Assembly (NCBI GenBank): GCA_018818885.1
Contig: JAHIRB010000021.1
Span: forward strand, 12,461-76,460
Length of the DNA: 64,000 nucleotides
Reading direction: 5' to 3'
From: Patescibacteria group bacterium
Lineage (GTDB): Bacteria; Patescibacteriota; Patescibacteriia; Buchananbacterales; SURF-54
Shown: positions 43,820-64,000 of the stretch, one piece after another
Position numbering within the stretch: position 1 is the first letter of the stretch
Layout: every line of letters begins with the position of its first letter
Program-made: the position numbers and the translations under genes
The notes under the pieces: model-generated
Databases searched by the model: none
What the model was told of the DNA's origin: nothing
Seen by the model: the letters and a program-made list of their open reading frames with translations, nothing else

Positions 43820-43835
43820 TATTAAATTATATTAC

Positions 43836-44630: not shown

Positions 44631-44657
44631 AATTGCACATTATTAATATTACACTAT

Positions 44658-45440: not shown

Positions 45441-45448
45441 TTTTAAAA

Positions 45449-46204: not shown

Positions 46205-46218
46205 AGAAAAAATTAACT

Positions 46219-47400: not shown

Positions 47401-47441
47401 AATATATATGTTCTTTATGAAACCACTAAAAAACTTATGGT

Positions 47442-48377
47442 TTACTTATATAATACTTTTTTTATTAAATATTCATGCTTTTTATCTTTTTGTATTATTA
47501 TTTCACTCAACAGTCCCAACGAAATTAACTGAACACCCACTACAATCATTAACACTCCAAATATCAACAAAGGAATCCTTCCTTGAGTTGATCCAGTTAT
47601 AAATTTTAGTAGTGTGACATAAAAATCAGCTATAAAACCGATACTAAAAAACAACAAGCCAAAGCTACCAAAAAAATGTGAAGGTTTTTTTACGTATCTC
47701 GTTAAAAGTAGAACTGTCAACAAATCTAAAATTCCTTCAACAAATCTTTTTATTCCATATTTAGTTTTTCCATATTTCCTGGCGTGATGCTGCACCTTAA
47801 TTTCTGTTACCTTAAAACCTTTATTGCTTGCGATCACTGGCAAAAAACGATGGAGATCGCCGTAAACATCTATTTCTTTAATGACTGTGCTACGATAGGC
47901 CTTAATGCCACAATTAATGTCGTGAAGCTTAACTCCTGTGAGCATTCTGACCATAAAATTAAAAGCTCTTGAAGGGATTGTTTTGGTGATTGGATCATTT
48001 CTTTTTTGTTTCCAACCTGATACTAAATCATAGCCTTCATTGATTTTATTAATGAGGGCAGGAATTTCTTGTGGATCGTCTTGCAAGTCTGCATCCATAG
48101 TAATTATTATTTTACCAATGGCTGTTTTAAAACCAGCTGCCAAAGCTGCTGACTTACCAAAATTTGTCCTAAACCTAATAACTTTTACTCCTTGATTATC
48201 ATTATACAATTCTTCCATCACCTTAAAAGTTCCATCTGTTGACCCATCATCAATAAAAATAATTTCATAGCTTAAATTATTGCTTTGCATGACTTGTTTT
48301 ATTTCTAAGTAGAGCTCACTTATGCTATCTTGCTCATTGTATGTCGGAATTACTATTGAAATCTTTTTTTCTTCCAT
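47442..48377 (-). CDS. GT2 polyprenol-phosphate glycosyltransferase with two C-terminal TM helices (GtrB/ArnC-like)
   Basis: ISIVIPTYNEQDSI...IFIDDGSTDGT...GKSAALAAGF...TMDADLQDDPQEI plus C-terminal hydrophobic hairpin; 311 aa. Confidence 0.8.
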   Translation of the reverse strand: MEEKKISIVIPTYNEQDSISELYLEIKQVMQSNNLSYEIIFIDDGSTDGTFKVMEELYNDNQGVKVIRFRTNFGKSAALAAGFKTAIGKIIITMDADLQDDPQEIPALINKINEGYDLVSGWKQKRNDPITKTIPSRAFNFMVRMLTGVKLHDINCGIKAYRSTVIKEIDVYGDLHRFLPVIASNKGFKVTEIKVQHHARKYGKTKYGIKRFVEGILDLLTVLLLTRYVKKPSHFFGSFGLLFFSIGFIADFYVTLLKFITGSTQGRIPLLIFGVLMIVVGVQLISLGLLSEIIIQKDKKHEYLIKKVLYK

Positions 48378-48505
48378 ACCCGGTAGTAGAAATTTAATTA
48401 TTAGGTTAGTATATAATTTGTTTAAAATAATTGTTGATAAATATTATAATTAATTTATCCTGTGCGTGAAATAGCGTTTATTAAATTTCCACTACCGGGA
48501 TATAT

Positions 48506-49222
48506 TTATCTATTTTTTAATCTCTTTTTTAACTGCCTTAAATTTTTAAAATATGACCAGCTTAAAGCCAGCGGCTGTACCCTGCTTATTCTATTTACTG
48601 GCTCACTCCATTTTACTGGCACTTCTTTTATCTTATAATTTTTTTGTTCGGCTAACAAAACTAATTCGCTATCAAAAAACCATTCGTTATTTTGTACCTG
48701 TGGCAGAATATGGTCTACAACTTTTTTGTTGACTGCTTTAAAACCGCATGGCAAATCTTTTATTTTAGTTTTTACAATTATTCTTGTTGCAACAAAATAT
48801 CCAAAAGAAAATAATTTTCTTAAAAGTGATCTTTTTACTTGGGAGCCTTTCATAAATCTTGAGCCTACTGCCATGTCATAACCTCCTTGATTAATAGCAT
48901 CGACCAAAGGAGGTAGCGACGACAGATCAGTTGCTAGATCTGCATCCATAAAGCAATAAATATCTGCATCAAATTTCTGCCATGCTTTTTTGATAGCAAT
49001 ACCCTTGCCCTTTTCTTCTACAAATAAATATTTGATGTGCTGGTAATCTTGCTCTAGACTCTTTGCTATATACGAGGTAAGGTCGGTAGACTTATTGTCT
49101 GCTATAATAATTTGCCATGTTGATTGCGTGATATTCTGTTTTAAATAATGATGTACGCGCAAAACACTTTCTTTGATAATTTTTTCCTCATTAAACGCTG
49201 GTATAACTATTATTAAATTCAT
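48506..49222 (-). CDS. GT2-family glycosyltransferase (Dpm1-like, soluble)
   Basis: IIVIPAFNEEKII...IIIADNKSTD...GKGIAIKKAW...MDADLATD...AVGSRF; 238 aa. Confidence 0.8.
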   Translation of the reverse strand: MNLIIVIPAFNEEKIIKESVLRVHHYLKQNITQSTWQIIIADNKSTDLTSYIAKSLEQDYQHIKYLFVEEKGKGIAIKKAWQKFDADIYCFMDADLATDLSSLPPLVDAINQGGYDMAVGSRFMKGSQVKRSLLRKLFSFGYFVATRIIVKTKIKDLPCGFKAVNKKVVDHILPQVQNNEWFFDSELVLLAEQKNYKIKEVPVKWSEPVNRISRVQPLALSWSYFKNLRQLKKRLKNR

Positions 49223-49225
49223 ACT

Positions 49226-50920
49226 TTAATTAACTTTATATATCTTAGTCGACTGATCTCGATAAACTTCTTCAAAATAAAAATTATTTGATAAATTTCT
49301 ATCTAAAAGCTGGTGCGTGGTATGTTCAATAAACACATATTCTGATTTAAAATCATTTTTAATTTGTTGGTAAAGAAATTCTTTTTCCTGTCCCATTGTA
49401 ATATTATACCATTTCCAATACAAATCCTTATTATAATTATACATAAATGTAGGGTCTAACCCAACTATATAGTAATTATTAGTATTATGATAAAAAAGTA
49501 TCGGAAATTCATCCCAATCACTGTGTAAAACAATGCTTTTGGGCGTTGTATTTTGATTTAGCCAATTTGATGCATCTTGATATTGAGTAAATGAAAAGTT
49601 TTTATGATGATCAATATATACTCTTTTGACGTCTCTAAAAACAATATAAGGCAACAAAACAATTGGAATAATCAATCCTACCAAAAGATATTTTTTTTGT
49701 AATAAAAGCTTCTTAAAATCCTGAGTTATTTGTTTGACCACTTTTGATGAAATAAATTGATTGATACTGATCGCAGAAAACAAAATCGCAAACGGTATAA
49801 AATATTCTACATTACGACGTGATTTTAATGTTAGTCCAAGAAATAACAAACTTAATATTAAGGTAGTTATCGAAATTACTGATTTTTTTCTTATGTGCAA
49901 GAAAAAAATTGTCAAAGCAATAATAAATATTATAAAAGTTAAAGACGAAGCTGCGATCAGATGAAAAAAATTGTATGGATACCACTCCCCTCCTACACCA
50001 ATTATTTTTTGATAATTTACTACTGCAATTTGAATAATCTGTTGCCAGTAAAACAATAAATTTTTTGGAAAGTATGGATTAAATATGAGGCCCGCTGACA
50101 AACCACCGACTACTGACAACAATAATTTAATATTCTGCAAATGTAATCTTTTATGATTCATTCTATTCACAAAAAATTTTAGAATTTGGGATTTAGAATT
50201 TGGAATTTGTTTGGGATTTAAAATTTGGGATTTAGGTTTTGTTCTCTTTACAAAACCTGACTTCACCGAAGAGAGATAACTACAAAATACAAAAATAAAC
50301 GTTATTACTAAAATTAACGGCCATCCTCCATACAACCAAACAAATAAAAATGATAATAATGATAATAACACATAACGTCTCTGTATAATTAGATACAAAC
50401 CAACAAAAAGTGCTATCAAAGCTAGCCCTTGAGCTTTTGCTAAGTTCAATCGAAAAATGAATGGATTAGCAGTTAACAAAATTAAAGTATAAATGATAGC
50501 TCCCTTAATCTTAAGTCTGTTTAGCAACCAATAAAATGTTAAAATTGCTAAAGTTGCAAAACAAATGGTGGCAAGCTTTAATCCGACCAATGGATTTAGA
50601 ATAGTTACAAAGGGTATTAGTAAAATGTGATATAAAAAATGATGGTCAGCAAAATAATTATTCAAAACAGTAAACTGCAAATATGGGAAATCAAAAACAA
50701 TGCCATTTTGACTAATCAATTCTGCCATTTTAGCGTGATAAAAAGAATCGGGATCTGCAAAACTAGGATACCCCTGCAAAATTAAAAAATATAAAAATAC
50801 AAAGGCAAAAAGTATTATGTATTTTAAATAGGGGGCTTGAGAAATAATAAAAGATAATCTATTTTTCATATGAGAAACAAAAACTTCAGTCAAAATACTG
50901 ACAACCCCAGCGCTAAACAC
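49226..50920 (-). CDS. polytopic membrane protein (putative GT-C glycosyltransferase) carrying an internal tandem-repeat-encoded loop (KSQIL x2)
   Basis: 564 aa, >12 TM helices. The loop ...KPKSQILNPKQIPNSKSQILKFF... is encoded by the aatttgggattt tandem repeat at ~50181-50236. Confidence 0.45.
   Translation of the reverse strand: MFSAGVVSILTEVFVSHMKNRLSFIISQAPYLKYIILFAFVFLYFLILQGYPSFADPDSFYHAKMAELISQNGIVFDFPYLQFTVLNNYFADHHFLYHILLIPFVTILNPLVGLKLATICFATLAILTFYWLLNRLKIKGAIIYTLILLTANPFIFRLNLAKAQGLALIALFVGLYLIIQRRYVLLSLLSFLFVWLYGGWPLILVITFIFVFCSYLSSVKSGFVKRTKPKSQILNPKQIPNSKSQILKFFVNRMNHKRLHLQNIKLLLSVVGGLSAGLIFNPYFPKNLLFYWQQIIQIAVVNYQKIIGVGGEWYPYNFFHLIAASSLTFIIFIIALTIFFLHIRKKSVISITTLILSLLFLGLTLKSRRNVEYFIPFAILFSAISINQFISSKVVKQITQDFKKLLLQKKYLLVGLIIPIVLLPYIVFRDVKRVYIDHHKNFSFTQYQDASNWLNQNTTPKSIVLHSDWDEFPILFYHNTNNYYIVGLDPTFMYNYNKDLYWKWYNITMGQEKEFLYQQIKNDFKSEYVFIEHTTHQLLDRNLSNNFYFEEVYRDQSTKIYKVN
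50181..50236. repeat. tandem short repeat (a)gaatttgggattt x ~4 inside the membrane-protein CDS; related copy at 53581-53620
   Basis: agaatttgggatttagaatttggaatttgtttgggatttaaaatttgggatttagg read directly. Confidence 0.55.
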
Positions 50921-51184: not shown

Positions 51185-52249
51185 TTATTTTTTAGAAAGT
51201 TGATTTTTAAAAAAATCTACAAATGGGATGATTTCTGGATTAACATTGTTTTGAATTGCCATATAAAAACTAACGTAACTGCCAAACTGTAATACTTCAA
51301 AGGCTTGATTGATTTTTTGCGATTGTACTGTAGAAAAGCTTACATGACTGATTTTATATTTATTTAAAATTTGCTTTGTTATTTTGATTCTTTTTTGATT
51401 TCTTGGTAAAAATAATTTTGATTCAAAAAATATAAAGACTAGATTGCTACCTTTTGGTTCTTTAAGACCTTCTAGCAAATGATGGTTGAGTTCTGGAATT
51501 AAATAATAAAAAGAAGAGTGTTTGGCACTCTCATTAATTTGATTAGCAACAGCATGTGCATTACCAGCTAAATGCTCACAAGCAACTATAATAGGGATTT
51601 TATTTTTTATTTTTTGTGCTGTTTGCTTAGCAGCATTTTTTGTAGTTTTGATGCCAAAATCATATCTTTTTTCACCTTGCTCTAAAGCTTTAATGACTTT
51701 TTGCAGATCATGTTTTGAAAATTTTACTAAACCCAACTTACTTAGAAGTACTAATTGACCTACCAAAGAATACCCAACTCCCATTCGTGGTTGCCCAGAA
51801 GAATTAAATTTTGGCTCAAATATATAACCCGGTAATTTATTTTTTTGCAAATAACTTTTTAGTTTGCCACCAGCTGCAAATCCAACAATTTTGGCTCCCC
51901 TCTTTTTTGCTTCATTTAAAGTAGCGAGAGGTTCCTCAGTATTACCTGAATAACTAGCAACTAAATATAAAGTTTTGTTATTAACATATTTTGGTAATTG
52001 GTAACTGTTGATTATTTCAAATGGAATTTTAATCTGATCTTTATAAACAGATTTTAAAATATGGGCGCCCAAGCCTGAGCCACCCATGCCATTTACCACA
52101 ACGTTATTAATATTTTGATAATTTGCAGGTATCTTAATTTTATTAGCTTCTTCAAACGCCTGCTGACACTGATTGGGTAATTGGCGTATTGATTCCAAAA
52201 TTTCTTCTGCTCCAAGCTTTTGTATTTGTTTATAATTATTGAGTGTCAT
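51185..52249 (-). CDS. SIS-domain sugar-phosphate isomerase, bifunctional phosphoglucose/phosphomannose isomerase-like
   Basis: 354 aa, two SIS-like halves, ...NNVVVNGMGGSGLGAHIL... phosphate-binding loop. Placement next to the glycosylation island fits hexose-6-P interconversion. Confidence 0.55.
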   Translation of the reverse strand: MTLNNYKQIQKLGAEEILESIRQLPNQCQQAFEEANKIKIPANYQNINNVVVNGMGGSGLGAHILKSVYKDQIKIPFEIINSYQLPKYVNNKTLYLVASYSGNTEEPLATLNEAKKRGAKIVGFAAGGKLKSYLQKNKLPGYIFEPKFNSSGQPRMGVGYSLVGQLVLLSKLGLVKFSKHDLQKVIKALEQGEKRYDFGIKTTKNAAKQTAQKIKNKIPIIVACEHLAGNAHAVANQINESAKHSSFYYLIPELNHHLLEGLKEPKGSNLVFIFFESKLFLPRNQKRIKITKQILNKYKISHVSFSTVQSQKINQAFEVLQFGSYVSFYMAIQNNVNPEIIPFVDFFKNQLSKK

Positions 52250-52453: not shown

Positions 52454-52480
52454 AAAAACGGCGCGAAAGGCCGTTTTTTA
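52454..52480. terminator. hairpin plus T tract (terminator/attenuator-like) in the 5' leader of the NYN gene
   Basis: aaaaaacggcgcgaaaggccgttttttatg: 6-bp GC stem flanked by A and T tracts, ending at the start codon. Confidence 0.4.
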
Positions 52481-52965
52481 TGATTTCCAAAGAAAACAAT
52501 TTTGCTTTTATAGATGGACAAAATCTAAATCTTGGCATTAAGAATTTAGGTTGGGACCTAGATTTTAGAAAATTTAGAGTATATCTTAAGGAAAAGTATG
52601 CCGTAAGCAAAGTTTATTACTTTATCGGCTACTTGCCACAATATCGTGATTTATACAAATCGTTACAAAAATATGGTTATGAACTAGTCTTTAAACCAGC
52701 GATGCAAGACAAAAAAGGTAAACCTAAAGGTAATGTTGACGCTGACTTGGTTTTAAAAGTTATGTTTGAATATAATAATTTTGATAAAGCTATAATTGTA
52801 AGTAGCGACGGTGATTTCTATTCGTTAATTAAACATCTTTATAGAAATAAAAAAATTAAAATTTGTTATGAGTCCATACGTAAAAACTTGTTCAATATTA
52901 TTGAAAAAAACCGCCAAGGAAAAAATAATCTATATGGACAATCTGAGGCAAAAATTGGAATATAA
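52480..52965 (+). CDS. NYN-domain (LabA-like) putative RNase
   Basis: FIDGQNLNLG...VYYFIGY...GNVDADLVLKVMFEY...AIIVSSDGDFYSLIKHL is a typical PF01936 NYN signature; 161 aa. Confidence 0.8.
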   Translation: MISKENNFAFIDGQNLNLGIKNLGWDLDFRKFRVYLKEKYAVSKVYYFIGYLPQYRDLYKSLQKYGYELVFKPAMQDKKGKPKGNVDADLVLKVMFEYNNFDKAIIVSSDGDFYSLIKHLYRNKKIKICYESIRKNLFNIIEKNRQGKNNLYGQSEAKIGI

Positions 52966-54951: not shown

Positions 54952-56031
54952 ATGACTCGAGAAGAAAAAATAAAAAAAATCATTCATAAAAGTAAACAAA
55001 TTTTTAAAGATAATGCTTTAGACAACGGTGCAATATCTGCCGCTAATCCAGACAAAGATTACTATCCTCGCGAAGCTAAAGATTATCATTATGTTTGGCC
55101 ACGCGATGCTGGCTATATTTGTGTTGCCGCAAAAATGGTAGGAATAAATGACATACAAGAACCTTATTTTGATTGGCTACTCAAACGACCAGAAGATTTT
55201 GAAAAAGAAGGTTTGCTATTTGGCAGTTATTCAACAAATGGCAGATTAAAAAATGGCCAATTCCAACCCGACCAGGCAGGCAGTACTTTATGGGCAATTT
55301 ATGATTTTTATAAAGATAATATCGCAGGATGCAAAAAACAGGAACTTCTCATTCGGCGCTTAGCCGATGGTTTAACTAACGACTGGAAGGGCAAATATTT
55401 TTTTCATAACACTGTTGATCTATGGGAAGAAGGAAGAAGAAAAACCTCAACTTCTATGGAAAATAACCACACTTATTCTTTAGCTGCCTGTGCTTATGGA
55501 TTAATTGTTGCAGATAAAATGGCTAACGGCGAAAAATGGAAAGAAGCAGCAGATCAAATGATAAAAATGGTAAATGAAGCATATAGCAAAAAGGATAAAA
55601 GATATTATAGAAATCACGGTAAAATAGACGACTTTAATGTTGATTCTTCTTTATTAGGTCTTGTTTACCCGTGTAGTATAGTAAAAGCAACTGATGAAAA
55701 AATGGTCAATACTGTAAAAGCAATTGAACAAAAAGCTGTTTTCCATGGAGGCGTACACCGCTATCAGTTTGATTATTATGATGGTGAAGGTACAGCAGAA
55801 GAAGGAGCAGGTGCTTGGCCTTTACTTAACTTTTGGATGTCTATTTACTGGTCAATCGGAAACGACAAAAAGAAAGCTCATAAATATTATGATTGGGTGG
55901 TAGACCGCGTAGAAAATGATTATTTAATACCCGAACAAATGTTTGAAGATTTTAGAAAAGGCATAAAGCCTTTAGCTTGGTCTCATGCTATGTTTGTTAT
56001 AGCTTCGAAGTATTTGGGGTATTTGGAGTAA
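54952..56031 (+). CDS. glycoside hydrolase family 15 (glucoamylase/glucodextranase-like) catalytic-domain protein
   Basis: ...YHYVWPRDAGYICVA... and the catalytic-acid context ...TVDLWEEGRR... (DLWEE) are GH15 hallmarks; 359 aa. Confidence 0.65.
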   Translation: MTREEKIKKIIHKSKQIFKDNALDNGAISAANPDKDYYPREAKDYHYVWPRDAGYICVAAKMVGINDIQEPYFDWLLKRPEDFEKEGLLFGSYSTNGRLKNGQFQPDQAGSTLWAIYDFYKDNIAGCKKQELLIRRLADGLTNDWKGKYFFHNTVDLWEEGRRKTSTSMENNHTYSLAACAYGLIVADKMANGEKWKEAADQMIKMVNEAYSKKDKRYYRNHGKIDDFNVDSSLLGLVYPCSIVKATDEKMVNTVKAIEQKAVFHGGVHRYQFDYYDGEGTAEEGAGAWPLLNFWMSIYWSIGNDKKKAHKYYDWVVDRVENDYLIPEQMFEDFRKGIKPLAWSHAMFVIASKYLGYLE

Positions 56032-56177: not shown

Positions 56178-57671
56178 ATGGCAAAAAAACTAAAAATTGT
56201 ACATTTCTGCTCAGAAGTCGAACCGTTTTCCAAAACCGGTGGTTTAGCTGATGTTGCATCTTCTCTGCCTAAAGCTATTAAAGGAGTAGGCCATGATGTA
56301 ATCATTGTTACACCCTTGTATTCAGAAGTTACTGATCTAAAAAAGTTTAAGCTGAAAAAAATAATTGAGGATATCAAGATTGAATTGAGCGAAGGTGTCC
56401 ATATGGAAGCAGATTTCTGGCAAGGAGAGCTAGAAAAAGGTTTACCTGTTTATTTTGTTGAAAATAATAAATATTTTGGCAAAAGAAAAAGTCTTTATGG
56501 ATCTGAACATGAAAATGCCAGATTTTTCTATTTTGATCTTGCTGCTATCAAATTATTAAAATTGATAAATTTCCAGCCAGATATAGTACACTGTCACGAT
56601 TGGCAAACTGGGCTTATCCCATATTTCTTAAAAAGAAGATATGCCAAAGATGAATTCTTTAAAAATACTGCCACAATTTTTACCATTCATAACCTATTAT
56701 TTCAATTCGGCCACAATTGGTGGAAAGTAAGAAGTAATCTACGTGATGATGGCTACTCACGTCTACCAAAATTCGGCCATACGCCAGCTATTGAGCGTAT
56801 TAATTTTGCTAAACGTGCATTTATTAATTCTGATATCATCAACGCTGTATCAGAACAATATGCAGAAGAAATTATCACCAAGGATTTTGGGCAAGACCTA
56901 CATCGGATATTAAAGAACCGTGAAGATAGGCTCTTTGGCATAGTTAATGGGATTGATTATGATGATTTCAACCCAAAAACTGATCCTGGATTATATAAAA
57001 AATATGATCCTAATTCTTTAAACAAAAAAGCGGAAAATAAAAAGTATTTACAAAAATATTTTGGCTTACCGGTTGATCCAGATATTCCGCTGATTGGAAT
57101 GGTAACCAGAATTGCTGAACAAAAAGGCATTGACTTGGTTATGCCAATTATGGAAGAACTGTTAAAACTAGATATTCAATTTGTCATAATGGGATCTGGC
57201 GAAAAGCACTATGAAAGTTTCTTTAAAAAAATGCAGAAAAAATATCCCAAAAAAGTCGGCACACATCTCGAATTTGACGCCAAACGGGCTACCTCTGTTT
57301 ATGCTGGCACTGATTTATTTTTAATGCCTTCACGCTTTGAACCCTGCGGTTTAGGACAATTAATAAGTTTACGATATGGTTCTATCCCTATCGTTCGTTC
57401 CGTTGGAGGATTAGCTGATACGGTAACGGACTACAATGCAAAAACTAAAAAGGGCAATGGTTTTATATTTCACAGCTACAACCATAAAGCATTATTGATA
57501 TCTCTTGTACGAGCAATTGAAAGCTATAAATATAATGAAAATTGGAACGATCTAGTAAAAAGAGGTATGGAGCAATCATCTTCCTGGGAAATCCCAGCTA
57601 AAAAATATTTGGTCTTATATCGCAAAGCTATCAAACAAAGACAAAAAGACTTGGCTAACAATAAAAAATAA
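56178..57671 (+). CDS. glgA: glycogen synthase (ADP/UDP-glucose: alpha-1,4-glucan glucosyltransferase, GT5)
   Basis: MAKKLKIVHFCSEVEPFSKTGGLADVASSLPKAIKGVGHDVIIVTPLY contains the KTGGLADV motif; 497 aa. Confidence 0.9.
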   Translation: MAKKLKIVHFCSEVEPFSKTGGLADVASSLPKAIKGVGHDVIIVTPLYSEVTDLKKFKLKKIIEDIKIELSEGVHMEADFWQGELEKGLPVYFVENNKYFGKRKSLYGSEHENARFFYFDLAAIKLLKLINFQPDIVHCHDWQTGLIPYFLKRRYAKDEFFKNTATIFTIHNLLFQFGHNWWKVRSNLRDDGYSRLPKFGHTPAIERINFAKRAFINSDIINAVSEQYAEEIITKDFGQDLHRILKNREDRLFGIVNGIDYDDFNPKTDPGLYKKYDPNSLNKKAENKKYLQKYFGLPVDPDIPLIGMVTRIAEQKGIDLVMPIMEELLKLDIQFVIMGSGEKHYESFFKKMQKKYPKKVGTHLEFDAKRATSVYAGTDLFLMPSRFEPCGLGQLISLRYGSIPIVRSVGGLADTVTDYNAKTKKGNGFIFHSYNHKALLISLVRAIESYKYNENWNDLVKRGMEQSSSWEIPAKKYLVLYRKAIKQRQKDLANNKK

Positions 57672-57674: not shown

Positions 57675-59906
57675 TTGCCTATGATCACTTGGGTTAATTT
57701 TTTACATATTTATCAACCTCCCTATCAAGATCCTGAGGTTGTACAACAGGTTAGTAAAGAAAGTTACTGGCAGTTGGTAAATATTTTAAAAAAAAACAAA
57801 AATGCAAAAATTACTCTAAATTTTTCTGGTTGCCTTTTAGAACATCTATATAGTGTGGGTCAAGAAAAACTTATTGAAGAATTCAAACAATTAGTTGCTG
57901 GTAGACAAATTGAGCTTGTTGGTTCTGCCAGGTATCATCCAATACTACCACTTTTGCCACCAAATGAAATTAAACGACAAATAGAACTTAATGATCAAAT
58001 TTTAAAACAAGCTTTTGACGATCTTTACCATCCAACGGGGTTTTTCTTGCCAGAGATGGCTTACAATGCTAACGTAGCAAAAATAATTAAAAAACTGGGA
58101 TACAAATGGATTATTCTAGATGAGATTGCGTATAAAGGACGATTAGGACTAGTTGACTATAACAAAAAATATAAAATAAAAAATATCGGCTTAATGGTTG
58201 CCTTTCGTAACCGTGATATTTCCAAAACATTTGTACCAGATACCATACTGAGCCTGACAAAAAAAAGCAATCCTCCTAATTTTCTAATAACTGCCACAGA
58301 CGGCGAAATGTACGGACATCACCATCATGACTGGCAAAATGTATTTGAACAAATTTTAAAAAATAATCAAGTAAGGACAAAAACAGTCTCTGAATATCTT
58401 GAACTGAGCATGCCAACTGAATCTGTCACTCCACTGGCAAGCAGTTGGGAAAGCACCCCTCAGGAACTGAAAAGAAAGCTCCCCTATGCTCTATGGCAAA
58501 ATCCAAAAAACAAGATACATCAAAACCTTTGGGATCTAAGAAAAATTGCTATCAGGGTTGTCAGCGCCAGTAAAGAAAAAGGGCCTAATTACGATTGGGC
58601 TAGGCATCACTTAGATAGAGGCCTTGCCAGCTGTGCCTGGTGGTGGGCAGCAGATAGGAAGCTTGATCTTTTTGATTTTGTCACTTGGAATCCAGATGCT
58701 GTAGAAAAAGGCATAAAAGAATTAATTTCTAGTATTAGATCGCTACACAATGTATCACAAAAAACAAAACTTGAAGCAGAAAAACTGTATCATTTATTAA
58801 TTAAAGAAATTTGGAAAAAGCACTGGAAGAAATATCATAAAACTCAACCAGAAGCAAAAAAAATGTCTACTGAGATTAGACGCGGACTTTCTCTTTTAGA
58901 CCAGAACTTCTTAATAAAACTTTTCAAGAAACATGTAGCCCCACAAATTATTGGCAAAGACGAAATTAGTTACATCGCCATTAATACGTTCAAACAAAAA
59001 ATTGGTCAGCAGTCTTTTTATCATATTGTAGCTAGATACGAAGTACATTTTAAAAATAAAAAGATGAAACCGGTTGTCATATTCTGCAACTCAAATTCTA
59101 AAGAACCTAGACAAGGTGCATTTGAAGCTTTAGACCATTTGTGGAAAAATGATTTTTCTAAAGGAAATTTGATGTGCCCACAACCATTATTTTTTCTAAA
59201 ACGCTACAAAGCAATGTTTTACTTGGAAGCATCCGGAAAAAATCTTTATCAATATATTATTGATCCACAAACAAAGTTTCGAGAACTTAAAAACATTGTA
59301 AAACTTTCTGGTCGCTGGCTGGCAAAACTGCATAATCTTCCTACTGACAAAGTAAAAAATTTCAATCCTGCTCACAGTAAAATTTCTACAATATTGCCTG
59401 GCCCAAAACACTTTCTAAAATCAATTGATATAAAGCATAACAAATATCCAAAATACCATGATCAAACTGAAAAACTTTTCCACAAAATTAACAATTTAGA
59501 AAAAAAGTGGGGTTTTGATGAACAATATATTATCCATGGTGATTTCCACCCAGAAAATGTAATCTATAATAAACAAAATAATTTGTTATTAGCAATTGAT
59601 TATACTGACTGCTGTTTAGGCCACTATGCCAGAGACTTGGCCAGCTTTATTCAACAACTTGGATACATGTCACGAAAAAATATTAGTTATCTCCAAATTA
59701 AAAAACTACAAAAAATATTTTTGCAATCATATTTAAAAAGAAGAAAAATCAAGCTAAAAACAAAAGATCACAACAGGCTTAATCTATATAAAGCTTGGAC
59801 ATCGTTAAGAAGCGCAATATTTTTTCTAACTGTTAGCACTTTTGATAGACCTCGCGCTGATGCGTTATTTGAAGAAACTAAAGGCTACTTAAAAAAAATA
59901 AAATAA
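57675..59906 (+). CDS. fusion protein: N-terminal GH57 alpha-glucan enzyme (branching enzyme/amylase-like), C-terminal APH/maltokinase-like phosphotransferase domain
   Basis: GH57 motifs NFLHIYQPPY, GFFLPEMAYN and ATDGEMYGHHH in the first ~450 aa. The C-terminus carries ...YIIHGDFHPENVIYN...LLAIDYTDCCLGHYARDLASFI..., the Brenner/APH HGDxxxxN...D kinase motif. 743 aa in a single ORF. Confidence 0.7.
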   Translation: MPMITWVNFLHIYQPPYQDPEVVQQVSKESYWQLVNILKKNKNAKITLNFSGCLLEHLYSVGQEKLIEEFKQLVAGRQIELVGSARYHPILPLLPPNEIKRQIELNDQILKQAFDDLYHPTGFFLPEMAYNANVAKIIKKLGYKWIILDEIAYKGRLGLVDYNKKYKIKNIGLMVAFRNRDISKTFVPDTILSLTKKSNPPNFLITATDGEMYGHHHHDWQNVFEQILKNNQVRTKTVSEYLELSMPTESVTPLASSWESTPQELKRKLPYALWQNPKNKIHQNLWDLRKIAIRVVSASKEKGPNYDWARHHLDRGLASCAWWWAADRKLDLFDFVTWNPDAVEKGIKELISSIRSLHNVSQKTKLEAEKLYHLLIKEIWKKHWKKYHKTQPEAKKMSTEIRRGLSLLDQNFLIKLFKKHVAPQIIGKDEISYIAINTFKQKIGQQSFYHIVARYEVHFKNKKMKPVVIFCNSNSKEPRQGAFEALDHLWKNDFSKGNLMCPQPLFFLKRYKAMFYLEASGKNLYQYIIDPQTKFRELKNIVKLSGRWLAKLHNLPTDKVKNFNPAHSKISTILPGPKHFLKSIDIKHNKYPKYHDQTEKLFHKINNLEKKWGFDEQYIIHGDFHPENVIYNKQNNLLLAIDYTDCCLGHYARDLASFIQQLGYMSRKNISYLQIKKLQKIFLQSYLKRRKIKLKTKDHNRLNLYKAWTSLRSAIFFLTVSTFDRPRADALFEETKGYLKKIK

Positions 59907-60007: not shown

Positions 60008-60574
60008 ATGCAACATCATTTAATTTTTGAGGGTGCAGAACTTGCAGGCAAAAGCTATCTAATGGCTCCTGTTTATAATTTCTTGGAAGAAAAATACAAT
60101 CAGAATAAAGTTGTGTTGGACGGCTGCCATTGGTTTAATTCTGATGTTGGTATATTTGGAACTACTTATGGTAAACCATGTATTGAAAAATATACTGAGA
60201 TGCTCAGTTTGTTAAAAGACAAAAACATTTTATTCGAAAAATTCCATATTTCTGATATAGTCTACAACCGCCTTCATAATAATATTGAACTGGATTATTC
60301 TAAAACTGAAACAAAACTAAAAAATCTTAATACTAAAATCATTCTTTGCACTTACACAGAAGACGAAAAACTAATATCAGAACGAATCAAAGACAGGCTG
60401 AATCTTTACCCACACTATAAACGTATTTTGCATGATCCTAAGTGGTACATACAACAGCAGCAACAATATATAGAAGAAGTTAAAAAAAGTCAATTACCAT
60501 ATAAAATTATTGACCTGACAAAAATACCTAACCAAAAGTACAAAGATGTGCTAAAATGGATTGGTGAAAAATAA
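60008..60574 (+). CDS. P-loop kinase-like hypothetical protein (dNK/dTMP-kinase-like Walker A)
   Basis: LIFEGAELAGKSYL resembles a nucleoside(-monophosphate) kinase P-loop; 188 aa. Weak call. Confidence 0.4.
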   Translation: MQHHLIFEGAELAGKSYLMAPVYNFLEEKYNQNKVVLDGCHWFNSDVGIFGTTYGKPCIEKYTEMLSLLKDKNILFEKFHISDIVYNRLHNNIELDYSKTETKLKNLNTKIILCTYTEDEKLISERIKDRLNLYPHYKRILHDPKWYIQQQQQYIEEVKKSQLPYKIIDLTKIPNQKYKDVLKWIGEK

Positions 60575-60586: not shown

Positions 60587-61489
60587 ATGAAAAAATCAAA
60601 ACTCCCATATTATATAGGCGTTGACGTAGGCGGAACAAAAATTGCTGCTGCATTGATTACCAACAATAAAATTCAAAAACGTATAAAGATACCTACCGAA
60701 AGTAGCCGGGGCAAAAAAGTAGTCTTAAAAAATATTGAAACAGCAGTTAGAGAAGTTTGGCAAAAAAACGTCAAAGCAATTGGTGTTAGTTTTGCAGGAC
60801 AAATTGATCAAAAAAAAGGTATCGTGATCGTCAGCCCTAATTTTTCTAAAAATTTTAAAAACGTAAAAGTTGCAGCTTTTTTAAAAAAGAAATTTAAAAA
60901 ACCTACCTTTGTCGAAAACGACACAAATTGTTTTGCGTTAGCAGAAAGTGTGTTAGGTGCGGGCAAAAAATATAAATACGTTGTAGGTTTAACGATAGGA
61001 ACTGGTGTTGGGTCTAGCATGATATTTGATGGTATTATTTTTCATGGAGAAAATGGCGCTGCTGGAGAGTGGGGGCATACCTCTATTGTAGAAAACGGTT
61101 TAACATGTTCTTGCAAACAAGTTGGGCATTTTGAAACTTATGCTTCTGGCAGTGGTATGTCTAAGCTTTACAAAAAAATCACCGGCAAGGAAAAGGATAC
61201 GTTTTATATTGAACAGCAGGCCAAAAAAGGTGATAAACATGCCAAACTTGTTTTAAAAATAATGTCTGAATCTTTGGGTGTAGGCATAGCAAATATCATC
61301 AACGCCTTGAATCCAAGCATTATAATAATTGGTGGTGGAATGATACGAGTAAATGATTTATGGAGTCCTGCTTTAAAAATTGCCCGCAAAAAGGCAGTTT
61401 ATCCAATATTGAAAAAAACAAAAATTGTTAAATCTAAATTAAAAGATGACGCTGGATTGTTAGGTGCGACCTTAATCATTAGAAATTGA
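60587..61489 (+). CDS. ROK-family sugar kinase (glucokinase-like)
   Basis: YIGVDVGGTKIAAALI...ENDTNCFALAE...GEWGHTSI...CSCKQVGHFETYASG (ROK Zn motif); 300 aa. Confidence 0.85.
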   Translation: MKKSKLPYYIGVDVGGTKIAAALITNNKIQKRIKIPTESSRGKKVVLKNIETAVREVWQKNVKAIGVSFAGQIDQKKGIVIVSPNFSKNFKNVKVAAFLKKKFKKPTFVENDTNCFALAESVLGAGKKYKYVVGLTIGTGVGSSMIFDGIIFHGENGAAGEWGHTSIVENGLTCSCKQVGHFETYASGSGMSKLYKKITGKEKDTFYIEQQAKKGDKHAKLVLKIMSESLGVGIANIINALNPSIIIIGGGMIRVNDLWSPALKIARKKAVYPILKKTKIVKSKLKDDAGLLGATLIIRN

Positions 61490-61517
61490 AAATTGAAAAT
61501 TAGAAATTATCCATAAT

Positions 61518-64000
61518 ATGCCCATACCGGGATTATCAATTAAAACCCAATCGCCAAAAAACTGGAATAGATCTACGGGCAAATTAACACCGCCAAGTCG
61601 ATCTAGTGGTCCAAAAAAATACGGCAAATATAAACCAAAAAGACTAAAGCTTGGTTCATCTTTAACTAAGTTAATTCTTGGTGTAATTGTAGCTGGTTTA
61701 ATAATTGGTTCTGTCAGCTCATTAGGCGTGCTTATTTGGGTTTCACGTAATTTACCAGACCCTAATAAAATAATTGAACGTGACATAGCGTTAAGCACAA
61801 AAATTTATGACAGGACCGGTGAAGATATTTTGTATGATATTCATGGTGAAGAAAAAAGGACAATGATTGAACTTTCTGATATTCCACAATTTATGCTTGA
61901 CGCAACCCTAACGGCAGAAGATAGAAAGTTTTATGAACATAAAGGCTACAGCATCACGGGTGTAATTCGTTCAGTAATAAAAAACATAACAACTGGCAGT
62001 CGCGTAGGTGGTTCGACCTTGACACAACAGTTAGTAAAAAACGCTATATTATCTCCAGAAAAAACATACACGCGAAAGATAAAGGAACTTATTCTTTCTT
62101 ATCAAATTGAAAGAAAATTTTCTAAAGAAGAAATTTTAAAACTATACTTTAACGAAATCCCCTATGGCTCAACTGCCTACGGAATTGAGGCAGGTGCTCA
62201 AACATATTTTGGTAAATCAGTGGATGACCTTACGTTAGGCGAAGCAGCTATTTTAGCAGCTATGCCACAAGCACCAAGCTACTACTCCCCTTATGGCACA
62301 CATGTTGAGGAACTCTATGGTCGACAAGGATGGGTTTTAGATAGCATGGTAGAGCTTAATTATATTACAGAAGACCAAGCAACTGCAGCAAAAAATGAAA
62401 CAATTGAATTCAAAAAGAAAAGAGAAAGTATTGTTGCTCCTCATTTTGTAATGTATGTAAAAGAATACTTATCTGAAAAATATGGCGAACGCGCTGTTGA
62501 ACAAGGAGGTCTTAAAGTTATTACCACTCTGGATTTATATAAACAAGAAATTGCTGAAGAAGCTGTTACCAACGGTATGAAAAATATTGAAAACAGAGGT
62601 GGCTCAAATGCAGCTTTAGTTGCTCTTGATCCAAAAAATGGACAAATACTAGCCATGGTTGGTTCTAAAGATTTTTACGACGAAGAAATAGACGGGCAGG
62701 TCAACGTAACTATTAGAGATAGACAGCCTGGTTCTTCGTTTAAGCCAATTGTTTATGCTGCAGCATTCCAAAAAGGCTATACTCCAAACACAACTTTATT
62801 TGATGTAGAAACAACTTTTTTAACAGAGATCGGTAAAGACTACACACCAAAAAATTATGACTTAAAAGAACATGGCCCAGTCACTATTAGAAAAGCTCTG
62901 GCAGGATCATTAAATATACCAGCAGTCAAAACCATTTATTTAACAGGGGTGGATAATGTTTTAGATTTAGCAGACAAGCTAGGCTACACCACCTTAAAAG
63001 ACCGTAGTCGCTTTGGACTTTCTTTAGTACTTGGTGGTGGAGAGGTAAAACTTATTGAGCACGTTAATGCATACTCAGTATTTGCACGCGAAGGAGAATG
63101 GCACCCCATTACTTCTATCTTAAGAGTAGAAGATAAAGAAGGTAAAGTACTTGAAGAATGGGAAGAAACACAAAAAAAAGTAATGGAAACTCAAATCGCG
63201 CGTCAGATAAATAATATCTTGTCTGACAATGCAGCTAGAGCCTATGCTTTTGGTGAAAACTCTGCATTGCAGCTAGGAGGTCGCCCTGTAGCTGCAAAAA
63301 CAGGCACTACCAACGATTACAGAGATGCTTGGACCATTGGTTACACTCCGTCGTTATCAGTTGGTGTCTGGGCAGGAAATAACGATAACTCAGAAATGTC
63401 TAGCTCTGGCTCTATGATGACAGGCCCAATCTGGAACGAATTTATGCGTAGAGTATTGGGTGATACGCCAATTGAATCATTTAAAGAACCAGACGAAGTA
63501 AAGACCAACAAACCCATTTTAGATGGGCAAGTTGCCGGACAAGCTACTTATGACATTGATAGAGTGTCTGGCCTATTAGCTACAAAAAATACACCATCAG
63601 ACTATATCGTTAAAAAAACCTTTACACTTGCTCACAACATACTCTACTACGTAAATAAAGACGACCCTCAAGGCCTGCCGCCTGCTGACCCTACTCAAGA
63701 CTGGCAATATCAAAATTGGGAAGACGCAGTAGCAAAATGGGCGCAGGAAAATAACATGGTTTTAGATGAACCCCCTACTGAATATGATAATGTCCATCTG
63801 CCAGAATACCAGCCTACAATCAAAATTAATACACCAAAAAATAACGACAAAATAATTTCACGTGATATTAACTTAGATGTGCAGGCAGCTGCACCACGTG
63901 GAATTTCTAAAGTAGAATATTATATAGATAACTCTTTAATTGGAGTTGCTCAATCACCACCATTTAATATTATGGGGTACATTGGTGATCCTGCAATTGG
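61518..64000 (+). CDS. class A penicillin-binding protein (PBP1A-type transglycosylase/transpeptidase), 5' part; gene runs off the window end
   Basis: ATG at ~61518 (MPIPGLSIKTQSPKNW...), TM anchor, then GT51 motifs EDRKFYEHKGYS, GGSTLTQQLVKN, RKIKELILSYQIE. Later SxxK context ...RQPGSSFKPIVYAAA... and SxN/KTG motifs (KTGTTND). No stop before 64000, so it is absent from the ORF track. Confidence 0.85.
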   Translation, partial: MPIPGLSIKTQSPKNWNRSTGKLTPPSRSSGPKKYGKYKPKRLKLGSSLTKLILGVIVAGLIIGSVSSLGVLIWVSRNLPDPNKIIERDIALSTKIYDRTGEDILYDIHGEEKRTMIELSDIPQFMLDATLTAEDRKFYEHKGYSITGVIRSVIKNITTGSRVGGSTLTQQLVKNAILSPEKTYTRKIKELILSYQIERKFSKEEILKLYFNEIPYGSTAYGIEAGAQTYFGKSVDDLTLGEAAILAAMPQAPSYYSPYGTHVEELYGRQGWVLDSMVELNYITEDQATAAKNETIEFKKKRESIVAPHFVMYVKEYLSEKYGERAVEQGGLKVITTLDLYKQEIAEEAVTNGMKNIENRGGSNAALVALDPKNGQILAMVGSKDFYDEEIDGQVNVTIRDRQPGSSFKPIVYAAAFQKGYTPNTTLFDVETTFLTEIGKDYTPKNYDLKEHGPVTIRKALAGSLNIPAVKTIYLTGVDNVLDLADKLGYTTLKDRSRFGLSLVLGGGEVKLIEHVNAYSVFAREGEWHPITSILRVEDKEGKVLEEWEETQKKVMETQIARQINNILSDNAARAYAFGENSALQLGGRPVAAKTGTTNDYRDAWTIGYTPSLSVGVWAGNNDNSEMSSSGSMMTGPIWNEFMRRVLGDTPIESFKEPDEVKTNKPILDGQVAGQATYDIDRVSGLLATKNTPSDYIVKKTFTLAHNILYYVNKDDPQGLPPADPTQDWQYQNWEDAVAKWAQENNMVLDEPPTEYDNVHLPEYQPTIKINTPKNNDKIISRDINLDVQAAAPRGISKVEYYIDNSLIGVAQSPPFNIMGYIGDPAI

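Follow-up and report, generated by a model that had tools for sequence, protein, structure and literature searches.

The window, by which we mean the whole 64-kb stretch of DNA analysed here, contains a gene that joins a GH57 alpha-glucan enzyme to an APH-type kinase, immediately downstream of the glycogen synthase gene glgA. Both the fusion architecture and its membership in the operon are near-certain. Our preferred reading, to which we assign a probability of roughly 40%, is that the product is bifunctional and acts in a Patescibacteria-specific glycogen operon, where it would remodel glucan with one half and phosphorylate a carbohydrate of the pathway with the other.

One reading frame, two domains

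The gene is laid out as follows:

57681..59906, + strand: GH57-kinase fusion gene, 741 aa plus stop (ORF list; Pfam GH57 and APH)
57681..58838, + strand: GH57 catalytic domain, aa 1-386 (Pfam PF03065, PDB profile matches, Foldseek)
58839..58862, + strand: inter-domain linker KTQPEAKK, aa 387-394 (AF2 low-confidence segment at aa 387-390; ends of stand-alone GH57 proteins)
58863..58865, + strand: Met395 codon, vestigial start of a once-separate kinase gene (alignment with the heads of stand-alone kinases)
58863..59903, + strand: APH/choline-kinase-fold kinase domain, aa 395-741 (Pfam APH, AF2, Foldseek)

The frame is unbroken on the + strand up to 59906, in the ORF list as well as in the DNA itself, and opens either at ATG 57681 or at an alternative in-frame TTG upstream, at 57675. 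We place the start at the ATG because an identical public protein (P0001, labelled 'phosphotransferase [Patescibacteria group bacterium]' at NCBI) has 741 aa. The original prediction of a single ORF joining a GH57 enzyme to an APH-type kinase is borne out, with PF03065 and PF01636 both above their Pfam cut-offs, and the motifs it quoted are all present: IYQPPY (CSR-1), FLPEMAY (E125), TDGEMYGHHH (D207) and HGDFHPEN...IDYTD (D621, N626, D640). Its boundaries have to be moved: the proposed 450 + 280 aa become ~386 aa of GH57 and ~347 aa of kinase, and the junction lies at 58839-58865 rather than at ~59000.

Stand-alone GH57 proteins stop just past an ...IWxxHWKK motif, matching the fusion junction, and stand-alone kinases begin with a stretch (MNKIRQLFDENF..., L091) that lines up with M395-STEIRRGLSLLDQNF of the fusion; for the split kinases, homology starts at residues 4-6 of the kinase half. 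From these alignments, the 8-residue linker corresponds to the old stop codon together with the intergenic spacer. The full-length AF2 model (pLDDT 93.9, pTM 0.57, pLDDT <50 only at aa 387-390) shows the two halves as domains predicted to fold independently on either side of the linker. No confident inter-domain interface is predicted in this model, as its pTM indicates, so substrate channelling is unsupported.

The GH57 half scores 124.7 bits against Glyco_hydro_57 (PF03065, aa 30-246, E 5.7e-36, cut-off 21.2) and is modelled, with pLDDT >90 over aa 1-386, as a (beta/alpha)7 barrel with a helical bundle. Foldseek matches it to eight different GH57 structures (E 1e-15 to 1e-10) and places it equidistant from 4-alpha-glucanotransferase, branching enzymes and amylopullulanases, while the best PDB profile match is 1k1w (E 2e-16), followed by GH57 branching enzymes. 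The CSRs read HIYQP (CSR-1, aa 9-13), GRQIEL (CSR-2, aa 74-79), FLPEMA (CSR-3, aa 122-127), ATDGEMYGHH (CSR-4, aa 205-214) and ASCAWWWAA (CSR-5, aa 316-324). In GH57 enzymes the catalytic nucleophile is a Glu in CSR-3 and the proton donor an Asp in CSR-4 (PMC6037648), and the predicted counterparts in the fusion are:

58053..58055, + strand: Glu125 codon, predicted catalytic nucleophile, in LPEMAY (conservation, alignment to 1k1w/1ufa)
58299..58301, + strand: Asp207 codon, predicted acid/base, in TDGEMYG (conservation, alignment to 1k1w)

Neither residue varies among 20 fusion proteins, and each is conserved to at least 90% across 48 GH57s, fused and stand-alone together. The region of E125 aligns with the nucleophile region of 1k1w (WLTERVW) and 1ufa (WLPEMAY), and that of D207 with DDGEKFG of 1k1w. 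Judged by conservation and alignment, the GH57 half is shown to be a compact enzyme of ~390 aa with a predicted intact retaining pair, Glu125/Asp207.

The fold and the catalytic Glu/Asp are shared with 1K1W, the 4-alpha-glucanotransferase of Thermococcus litoralis, and with the GH57 branching enzymes (1UFA/3P0B, 3N8T, 5WU7, AmyC 2B5D), but at 12-17% identity; those proteins have 520-660 aa against ~390 here, and only the fusion carries a C-terminal kinase. CSR-3 (LPEMAY) and CSR-4 (D-x-E-x-x-G-H) resemble those of the branching enzymes, and the nucleophile-acid/base spacing of 82 aa, which is also the clade median, compares with ~91 in 1K1W. The fusion further differs in its CSR-1, H-I-Y-Q-P, and in its CSR-5, whose A-A ending matches no fingerprint described in PMC6037648. 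In GH57 branching enzymes, a flexible loop (with a Tyr) and beta5-beta6, both between CSR-3 and CSR-4, correlate with branching activity (PMC9291813). The fusion lacks this ~170-aa region with its loop and beta5-beta6: with 82 residues between E125 and D207, against ~170 in TT1467, there is no space for the branching-enzyme insertion. A canonical GH57 branching enzyme is ruled out by this absence and by the score of 28.9 bits against the NCBIfam model NF041566 branchenz_Thermus (cut-off 920). The Pfam matches of the fusion protein include neither DUF1957 nor a carbohydrate-binding module. The position right after glgA, in a window without a GH13 glgB, is suggestive of an alpha-1,6 branching role.

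The kinase half scores as a kinase, as had been claimed: the APH model PF01636 matches aa 474-659 with 46.4 bits (E 5.3e-12, cut-off 23.2), and Choline_kinase PF01633 also passes, with 29.9 against a cut-off of 29. Modelled separately (pLDDT 93, pTM 0.91), it opens directly past the linker with three short helices. Its Foldseek matches are PsiK, APH(2''), APH(3'), choline/ethanolamine kinases and LxmK/TvaE, at TM 0.5-0.63 and 12-16% identity, with a probability of 1.00 for APH(2''), APH(3'), choline kinases and PsiK. NCBIfam matches all fall far under their cut-offs, the best being SrkA (31 bits) and the others homoserine kinase II, macrolide/aminoglycoside kinases and LxmK. The conserved elements are:

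58992-58994, + strand: invariant Lys438, upstream of the family signature (100% in 60 sequences)
59082..59111, + strand: family signature F468-C469-N-S-N-S-K-E-P-R477 (C469 92%, R477 100% in 60 sequences)
59535..59558, + strand: catalytic loop H619-G-D621-F-H-P-E-N626 (H, G, D and N 100% conserved in 60 members)
59595..59609, + strand: predicted metal-binding motif I639-D640-Y-T-D643, the 'DFG-equivalent' (I639 and D640 100%, D643 95% in 60 members)

Conservation thus shows a kinase with an intact predicted catalytic loop, HGDxHPxN...ID, and an atypical N-lobe. Specifically, the predicted beta3 strand (strands taken from the AF2 secondary structure) bears Cys469 where the ATP-binding Lys is expected, and Lys438 on beta1 and Arg477 before helix C may substitute for that lysine. 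The C-lobe residues Q658, Q659, F680, Y684, Y703, W706 and R710, aromatic or polar and invariant in 60 sequences, suggest a defined small-ligand pocket. An exhaustive search of 1.84 billion sequences returned 61 representatives at E<=1e-30, and the kinase is best read as a small, distinct, Patescibacteria-specific family, at present annotated only as 'phosphotransferase' or 'hypothetical'. The signature is variable, its strict form FCxAxSxExR catching only 30 of the 151 matches of the exhaustive search, and for this reason it was not used to define the family.

The glycogen gene cluster and its fused and split forms

The neighbours named in the original prediction, glgA upstream, a GH15 gene and a ROK kinase, are recovered by Pfam and NCBIfam:

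51185..52249, - strand: bacterial-type phosphoglucose isomerase (SIS + bact-PGI_C), divergent, at the cluster edge (PF10432, E 4e-31)
54952..56031, + strand: GH15 family hydrolase, glucoamylase/oligosaccharide-amylase-like, catalytic domain only (PF00723, E 1.3e-11)
56178..57671, + strand: glgA, GT5 glycogen/starch synthase (TIGR02095, 506.6 bits against 328)
60008..60574, + strand: 188-aa P-loop protein, weakly thymidylate/deoxynucleoside-kinase-like (Pfam Thymidylate_kin, E 9e-4, below cut-off)
60587..61489, + strand: ROK-family sugar kinase, glucokinase-like (Pfam ROK, E 9e-66)

The stop codon of glgA sits 9 nt ahead of the fusion ATG. The GH15 gene, which scores 128 bits against TIGR01577, under its cut-off, is a clade-specific member found in the window's clade and in L057, L063 and L068. 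The other neighbours recur more widely: L007, L012, L016, L019, L022, L041, L048 and L064 have a homologue of the P-loop protein just 3' of their kinase or PHP gene, ROK genes occur in 10 related loci (167.7 bits here against a TIGR00744 cut-off of 260), and the phosphoglucose isomerase holds the same position in more than 20. Neither glgC, glgB, glgE, treS, glgP nor pgm was found in the window, as judged from the 20 ORFs outside the cluster that are 311 aa or longer and from tblastn with the cluster proteins. The check for glgE, treS, glgB (GH13) and glgC that accompanied the original prediction came back equally empty in 8 gene-called related loci. The window's 64 kb also hold no GalT-like gene, and its own clade no PHP gene. 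Elsewhere in the window, a 4.3-kb stretch at 26.5-30.8 kb is free of long ORFs and matches no Rfam family.

Across 62 species-level Patescibacteria genomes, the two halves are fused in 11 and encoded by adjacent genes in 40; five more have no GH57 but keep GlgA and kinase adjacent, one has an apparent GlgA-kinase fusion, and five are cut by contig ends. The unfused two-gene form is therefore the commoner state, and the general idea of a glucan-processing enzyme coupled to a kinase holds well beyond the fusion itself. The conserved order is RuvC-[GH15]-GlgA-GH57-kinase, and GlgA sits directly 5' of either GH57 or the kinase in almost every one of 66 loci. Split GH57/kinase pairs are mostly spaced by -11 to +10 nt, and independent gene calls give GlgA-GH57(407-409 aa)-APH(339-340 aa), elsewhere GlgA-APH. 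Fusions recur in ~23 protein clusters of 731-763 aa, with 37-100% identity and a conserved linker, from NCBI, JGI, ENA and Logan assemblies. One candidate stand-alone kinase, P0121, is in fact a fusion truncated on its 1.2-kb contig and was left out of the stand-alone set. In the kinase tree the fused state occupies 2-3 separate clades, the window's clade being uniformly fused. Fused and split branches alternate there, which calls for more than one event of fusion or of its reversal. Fusion came about when the GH57 gene lost its stop codon, at least twice unless reversed.

The kinase keeps its GlgA neighbour in the clade without GH57, and at L089 a short GH57 is paired with GlgA with no kinase present. 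Two further genes accompany related clusters: a GalT-like gene in 14 (TIGR00209, 124 bits against a cut-off of 102), and a PHP gene directly 3' of the kinase in 30 loci, with one representative (P0354) fusing kinase and PHP. The PHP protein is closest to 3',5'-nucleoside-bisphosphate phosphatase and RNase AM (109 and 80 bits, below cut-offs), and may therefore be unrelated. A single ORF also joins GlgA to the kinase (L018/P0129); the recurrence search found it to be a singleton, and we accordingly treat it as weak evidence.

Candidate activities of the two halves

In our preferred reading, the operon core is glgA-GH57-kinase, of which two adjacent genes have here merged into one. The GH57 half would remodel the alpha-1,4-glucan made by co-transcribed GlgA, through transglycosylation or branching and/or trimming, and probably takes over the function of GlgB, which is absent. 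The kinase half would transfer phosphate from ATP to a carbohydrate hydroxyl in the same pathway, not to a protein; its small-molecule-kinase traits are the APH and Choline_kinase scores and the ID-x-x-D metal motif.

NahK (LnpB), an N-acetylhexosamine 1-kinase, and the GalT-like LnpC belong to the bifidobacterial GNB/LNB pathway, and AmgK is a MurNAc/GlcNAc 1-kinase; NahK and AmgK are APH-fold kinases that act on the anomeric OH of a glycan-released sugar, upstream of a hexose-1-phosphate nucleotidyltransferase. By analogy with these and with Mak, which has the same fold, the kinase could be an anomeric (C1) sugar kinase, a tentative proposal for which we would offer rather less than even odds. 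It would capture the glucose or malto-oligosaccharide that the retaining GH57 sets free in the alpha configuration, and the sugar-1-phosphate produced would return to NDP-glucose synthesis by way of the GalT-like hexose-1-phosphate nucleotidyltransferase of many clusters. The likeness to NahK-LnpC lies in those GalT-like genes, but specific sequence similarity to NahK or AmgK is absent (AmgK model, E 0.06), and the partner here is a glycogen synthase operon. Several further observations count against the C1 proposal: the kinase matches no Mak model at E<=10 in NCBIfam, the ROK glucokinase already provides an entry point for glucose, and the GalT route has no GalT-like gene in the window. Moreover, in the clade that lacks GH57 the kinase still neighbours GlgA, so its substrate may have a source other than GH57.

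We consider it unlikely, though worth weighing, that the kinase acts on the glycogen or malto-oligosaccharide polymer itself, phosphorylating glucosyl units while tethered by GH57, and that in many relatives PHP removes the phosphate. The kinase is indeed fused or adjacent to polymer enzymes, namely GH57 (in at least two independent fusions) and GlgA (in the GH57-less clade and the L018 ORF), it is directly followed by PHP in 30 loci and fused to it in P0354, and APH-type enzymes phosphorylate hydroxyls of oligosaccharide-like aminoglycosides, which provides a precedent. However, the PHP protein resembles nucleotide and RNA enzymes and is missing from the window's clade, no carbohydrate-binding module is detected by Pfam, the GlgA-kinase singleton could be an error, and we know of no polymer kinase of the APH fold. 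Plants have a glucan phosphorylation cycle of glucan-water dikinase and SEX4, with laforin in animals. The kinase-PHP adjacency may share its logic, but there the kinase is a phosphohistidine-domain dikinase rather than an APH-fold enzyme, and the phosphatase is of the DSP rather than the PHP type. A bolder pair of options, which we likewise regard as improbable, is that this is the first bacterial kinase of alpha-glucan polymers or oligomers, with reversal by PHP, or a maker of alpha-sugar-1-phosphate that feeds the GH57. In the former case, a GH57-tethered or GlgA-adjacent kinase would phosphorylate glycogen chains that the PHP phosphoesterase of sister lineages dephosphorylates; in the latter, the GH57 domain would take the kinase-made alpha-sugar-1-phosphate as its activated donor, as a GH57 analogue of Mak-GlgE.

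Less probable again is a regulatory protein kinase (or non-catalytic scaffold) that would phosphorylate GlgA and/or GH57 to switch glycogen synthesis or turnover, with PHP as the counter-enzyme. In NCBIfam the SrkA/YihE Ser/Thr protein kinase model scores best, the LxmK/TvaE peptide kinases rank among the top matches by sequence as well as by structure, the kinase is paired with PHP, a family whose CpsB-type members are protein phosphatases, and the adjacency to GlgA is invariable. These matches are nonetheless far under family cut-offs, at 12-16% identity, whereas Pfam places the domain above cut-off in small-molecule families. The metal motif is ID-x-x-D and not DFG, and the invariant C-lobe residues would fit a small-ligand pocket.

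The original prediction also called the kinase maltokinase-like, which stands at the level of the fold but fails as a specific analogy to Mak and the GlgE pathway. A true maltokinase, making maltose-1-phosphate for a GlgE maltosyltransferase encoded elsewhere, is in our judgement very improbable. It would share the general APH/MTR-kinase-like fold and the alpha-glucan gene context, and TreS-Mak proteins of the GlgE pathway in Actinobacteria and Chlamydiae likewise join an alpha-glucan glycoside-hydrolase-type enzyme to an ATP-dependent kinase of this fold, fused in some lineages and unfused in others (PMC11046441). Yet no maltokinase model matches the kinase half at E<=10 in NCBIfam, no Mak chain is among the best 60 of 184 PDB profile matches at E<=10 (those 60 reaching E 0.33), and no Mak structure is among its best 50 Foldseek matches; full-length and kinase-only PDB profile searches agree in giving no preferential match, and we reject the identification. 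Mak has an N-terminal CAP subdomain, a strictly conserved Lys149 and the metal ligands Gln310/Asp322 (PMC11046441). The fusion protein has no Pfam match to Mak_N_cap, and, matched by motif position only, a Cys (Cys469, on beta3) stands in place of Lys149 and Asn626/Asp640 in place of Gln310/Asp322, the first ligand being Asn and not Gln. The fusion partner is GH57 here and GH13 in TreS-Mak, and the operon partner is a GT5 GlgA instead of GlgE/GlgB, with no GH13 GlgE or TreS seen in the window or the 8 annotated related loci.

Finally, a frameshift, lost stop or chimeric assembly joining two genes in this contig alone, for which one could cite the commoner two-gene form and the coincidence of the junction with an old gene boundary, can be dismissed: the frame runs through without any homopolymer-linked break, the window's clade is uniformly fused, and independent assemblies (~23 protein clusters) as well as 11 species-representative genomes carry the same fusion.

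Meaning for carbon storage in Patescibacteria

A large part of bacterial diversity belongs to the Patescibacteria (CPR), whose metabolism is minimal and of which almost none are in culture; to our knowledge, their carbon storage and mobilisation has been inferred from annotation only. Full-text searches covering GH57 and CPR/Patescibacteria glycogen gave no description of the fusion, the kinase family or the operon. Should the substrate prove ordinary (e.g., glucose at C6), the finding shrinks to a lineage-specific gene fusion. If the kinase were instead an alpha-glucan kinase, a starch-like cycle of phosphorylation and dephosphorylation would govern the solubility and turnover of glycogen in these bacteria.

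Many Patescibacteria share a fixed operon of glgA, a compact GH57 and a lineage-restricted kinase of a small family, the latter with a WNK-like relocated lysine of putative role. The recurrent GH57-kinase fusion is Rosetta-stone evidence for an ATP-dependent phosphorylation step within Patescibacteria glycogen metabolism, a step that, as far as we know, the classical GlgC-GlgA-GlgB scheme does not hold. With no GlgC seen in the annotated related loci or the window, a GlgC-independent path to NDP-glucose through a GalT-like enzyme is possible. The 741-aa protein offers a handle on the relocated lysine and on this path, as well as on how glycogen is branched where both GH13 and canonical GH57 branching enzymes are missing, a question posed for archaea too (PMC11046441).

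Adjacent GH57 and kinase genes of a glgA operon are recurrently fused with intact catalytic motifs

The GH57-kinase gene is a single open reading frame, as the original prediction had it, and its product is identical to a public protein of 741 aa (P0001, NCBI 'phosphotransferase [Patescibacteria group bacterium]', on a 137-kb contig). This length places the start codon at the ATG at 57681, from which residues are numbered here. A Pfam scan bore out both domains, Glyco_hydro_57 at aa 30-246 (E 5.7e-36) and APH at aa 474-659 (E 5.3e-12), with Choline_kinase marginally over its cut-off, and the GH15, GlgA and ROK neighbours that had been named were all confirmed. The features of the window are listed below.

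26541-30849 (4.3 kb): no ORF of at least 150 aa and no Rfam family at gathering threshold
32747-50920, minus strand: long co-directional block of membrane proteins and glycosyltransferases (PMT_2, GT2, GT4), including several 450-560-aa proteins without Pfam match; together a region for cell-envelope glycosylation, as is typical of CPR genomes
51185-52249, divergent orientation: bacterial-type PGI
52480-52965: 161-aa ORF between PGI and YebC, missing there in related loci; judged by eye, the N-terminal part (FIDGQNL...) resembles a NYN/LabA-like domain
54952-56031: GH15 (Pfam/NCBIfam)
56178-57671: GlgA (TIGR02095, 506 bits)
57675 (TTG) or 57681 (ATG) to 59906, plus strand: GH57-kinase ORF, no interruption in frame
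60008-60574: P-loop protein, 188 aa, Walker A motif EGAELAGKS, weak thymidylate/deoxynucleoside-kinase-like match
60587-61489: ROK (Pfam/NCBIfam)
~61500-64000, plus strand: reading frame, open over 834 codons or more, that leaves the window at its 3' end; synteny with related loci L004, L006 and L007 predicts a class A penicillin-binding protein (Transgly + Transpeptidase)

Among 5.8 billion protein clusters searched, about 23 show the GH57-APH architecture; they are 731-763 aa long, lie at 37-100% identity and come from four independent data sources. The fusion is thus real, and the chance that it reflects a frameshift or an assembly join is negligible. Across 20 aligned fusion proteins the GH57 nucleophile E125 (LPEMAY) and acid/base D207 (TDGEMYG) are invariant, as are the kinase catalytic loop H619-G-D621...N626 and the metal-binding D640.

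Scanning one genome per GTDB species with a kinase-only alignment gave 62 kinase-family loci (L008-L069), every one from Patescibacteria MAGs (Parcubacteria, Falkow-, Buchanan- and Kuenenbacteria). TPA records titled 'uncultured Gammaproteobacteria bacterium' (L008, L009, L014, L018-L020 and many more) carry the Patescibacteria-type cluster and share its YebC-RuvC-GlgA synteny; these titles look like placeholder mislabels. Classifying stop-to-stop ORFs by BLASTP against the window's proteins revealed a conserved order, in which parentheses mark optional members: PGI on the minus strand, then YebC, RuvC, (GH15), GlgA, GH57, kinase, (PHP), (188-aa P-loop protein), (second GlgA or GT4s), (GalT-like), (ROK). 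GH57 and kinase form one ORF in 11 of the 62 species genomes and two adjoining genes in 40, mostly spaced by -11 to +10 nt; in five the kinase directly follows GlgA without GH57, one has an apparent GlgA-kinase fusion, and five loci are interrupted by contig ends. Fusion is the rarer state of this conserved gene pair. Independent gene calls give GlgA-GH57 (407-409 aa)-APH (339-340 aa) in L090 and L091, and GlgA-APH-GT4 in L001/L002.

Among the optional members, homologues of the 188-aa P-loop protein lie just 3' of the kinase or PHP gene in L007, L012, L016, L019, L022, L041, L048 and L064. A second GT5 GlgA paralogue occurs a few genes 3' of the kinase in L015, L016, L019, L021-L023, L026-L029, L031, L034, L039, L040, L050, L058-L062, L064, L067 and L069; three GT4 glycosyltransferases take its place in the clade that lacks GH57.

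Stand-alone GH57 proteins end directly past an ...IWxxHWKK motif, and stand-alone kinases begin M-x-x-(I/K)-x-x-LFD.... The junction in the window reads ...IWKKHWKKYH-KTQPEAKK-M395-STEIRRGLSLLDQNF. The match to the ends of the stand-alone genes identifies Met395 (58863-58865) as the former start of the kinase gene; the 8-residue linker KTQPEAKK takes the place of the lost stop codon and spacer. In keeping with this, in the full-length AlphaFold model (mean pLDDT 93.9, pTM 0.57) both domains are confident and only aa 387-390 fall under pLDDT 50; the two domains are thus predicted to fold independently, with an inter-domain interface that is not confidently placed. A neighbour-joining tree of 60 kinase domains puts the fused forms in two to three separate clades (the window clade, to which the kinase of the present fusion belongs; L005/L052/L053; and L044/L047/L051). 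Because these are nested among split forms, fusion, or fission, has occurred repeatedly, the number of events being approximate in such a quick tree.

The two halves of the fusion protein

The isolated kinase domain is modelled with pLDDT 93 and pTM 0.91, and Foldseek assigns the predicted structure to the APH/choline-kinase fold. The best matches are PsiK, putative APHs, APH(2''), choline/ethanolamine kinases and TvaE/LxmK, at TM 0.5-0.63 and 12-16% identity; the best NCBIfam matches, all far under cut-offs, are SrkA-type protein kinase, type-II homoserine kinase, Mph, LxmK and APH(3'), with AmgK reaching E 0.06 at best. The kinase had been predicted to be maltokinase-like, an identity for which the searches gave no specific support. 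No maltokinase (Mak) model matched at E<=10 in NCBIfam, no Mak chain is among the best 60 of 184 PDB profile matches (E<=10; the 60 reach E 0.33), and no Mak structure is among the best 50 Foldseek matches. Mak enzymes are recognised by a CAP subdomain, an invariant Lys149 and the metal ligands Gln310/Asp322 (PMC11046441), whereas the kinase half lacks the CAP, has Cys469 on the predicted beta3 strand at the motif position of the lysine, and has Asn626 and Asp640 as the counterparts of the metal ligands.

Among 60 family members (L004-L069), Cys469 (59085-59087) takes the position of the canonical beta3 lysine in 92%, within the motif F-C-x-A-x-S-x-E-x-R, and K438 (58992-58994, beta1) and R477 (59109-59111, before helix C) are 100% conserved. 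K438 and R477 are candidates for a relocated ATP-binding basic residue, reminiscent of the arrangement in WNK kinases. The family is small: exhaustive HMMER searching of 1.84 billion representative proteins gave 451 matches at E<=1e-3, 167 at E<=1e-10 and 61 at E<=1e-30. Its members are overwhelmingly stand-alone proteins of ~330-365 aa, and only two of the 61 strong matches are GH57 fusions; distant relatives of more than 600 aa are tandem APH-APH proteins and one APH-PHP fusion (P0354).

For the GH57 half, the best PDB profile match is the T. litoralis 4-alpha-glucanotransferase 1k1w (E 2e-16, aa 3-265), followed by the GH57 branching enzymes 5wu7, 3n8t and 1ufa and by AmyC 2b5d; Foldseek ranks glucanotransferase, branching enzymes and amylopullulanases about equally (E 1e-15 to 1e-10, 12-17% identity). 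A canonical GH57 branching enzyme can be rejected: the Thermus GBE equivalog model scores 28.9 bits against a cut-off of 920, the Pfam scan found no DUF1957 domain, and nucleophile and acid/base are separated by 82 residues (clade median 82) compared with ~170 in the branching enzyme TT1467. This gap cannot fit the flexible loop and the strands beta5-beta6, whose presence goes along with branching activity (PMC9291813). The conserved sequence regions (HIYQP, GRQIEL, FLPEMA, ATDGEMYGHH, ASCAWWWAA) do not fit any of the specificity fingerprints that PMC6037648 summarises, the mismatches including logo position 23 and the final two logo positions.

Stand-alone relatives of ~410 aa are common across Patescibacteria and also occur in Chloroflexota and Omnitrophica. 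One kinase-free locus, L089, reads GlgA-GH57-GlgA2-GalT-like, so that GH57 pairs with GlgA even there. Because of its operon position, its intact catalytic pair and the lack of a GH13 enzyme in the window, we infer that the GH57 half remodels the GlgA product and is the best candidate for a branching or transglycosylating function. The same branching question has been posed for short archaeal GH57 'amylases' (PMC11046441).

Two further arrangements were observed. P0024 (706 aa) joins a same-clade GH57 to a different, more canonical APH-type kinase, which aligns with the present family only in the catalytic loop; it is possibly a further independent GH57-kinase fusion. In a Chloroflexota MAG (L088:4699-7239) two short GH57 genes (431 and 412 aa) lie in tandem ahead of one for a 630-aa protein without Pfam domain, with neither GlgA nor kinase nearby.

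Partner genes and the function of the kinase

The kinase had been compared with the maltokinase of the GlgE pathway. Neither annotation of the 20 ORFs of at least 311 aa outside the cluster nor tblastn with cluster proteins located glgC, GH13 glgB, glgE, treS, glgP or pgm within the 64-kb window, or a PHP gene, a GalT-like gene or a second glgA. A GalT-family hexose-1-phosphate nucleotidyltransferase (over the TIGR00209 cut-off, DUF4921/DUF4931-like) is found in 14 related clusters, mainly of the window clade and the clade without GH57 (L004:13897-14832; also L007-L012, L017, L018, L036, L038, L043, L063 and L064), and additionally at L089:8751-9788. Together with GlgC not being seen, this member suggests that the GlgA substrate may be made by a route independent of GlgC.

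The data show the domain architecture, the intact catalytic motifs, membership of the operon and repeated fusion of neighbouring partners. Beyond this, we infer that the substrate of the kinase is a carbohydrate from the glycogen pathway. Tentatively, at a probability of roughly one in three, we favour an anomeric (C1) sugar kinase that would act on alpha-anomers released by GH57, with the GalT-like enzyme consuming the resulting hexose-1-phosphates. To our knowledge, the characterised sugar kinases of the APH fold (Mak, NahK, AmgK) all phosphorylate C1. GH57 enzymes are retaining and hence release alpha-anomers. This reading rests on these two points, on the frequency of the GalT-like gene and on GlgC not being seen.

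Somewhat less probable is a kinase acting on the glucan polymer itself. The kinase is associated with both polymer-acting enzymes, GH57 and GlgA, and a PHP phosphoesterase lies directly 3' of it in 30 related loci (e.g., L005:10199-11089 and L016:8004-8888); P0354 (640 aa), from the exhaustive search, fuses kinase and PHP. The two are possibly a kinase/phosphatase pair. The best NCBIfam matches of PHP are 3',5'-nucleoside-bisphosphate phosphatase and RNase AM, both under cut-offs, and the window clade has no PHP gene. The single GlgA-kinase fusion, an intact 829-aa ORF at L018:261-2747 (P0129; GlgA at aa 1-495, kinase-family domain at aa ~505-829), is counted as weak support only: the 5.8-billion-cluster database has no second example, the GlgA proteins closest to it (83% identity) are unfused, and either fusion was very recent or the MAG is in error.

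That the kinase instead serves as a regulatory protein kinase we consider improbable, and a true GlgE-pathway maltokinase is very unlikely, as no Mak model, chain or structure stands out among the matches listed.

Full-text literature searching turned up no account of the fusion, of the kinase family or of a glgA-GH57-kinase operon, and the GH57 subfamily review (PMC6037648) does not mention kinase fusions; the fusion sequence itself is already public under the generic name 'phosphotransferase'. TreS-Mak likewise couples a glucan enzyme to an APH-fold kinase, but the GH57-kinase has different partners, another kinase lineage and another pathway. Although the fusion represents no new principle, it points to an ATP-dependent step, conserved but so far unannotated, in how the Patescibacteria, a very large uncultured radiation, metabolise glycogen.
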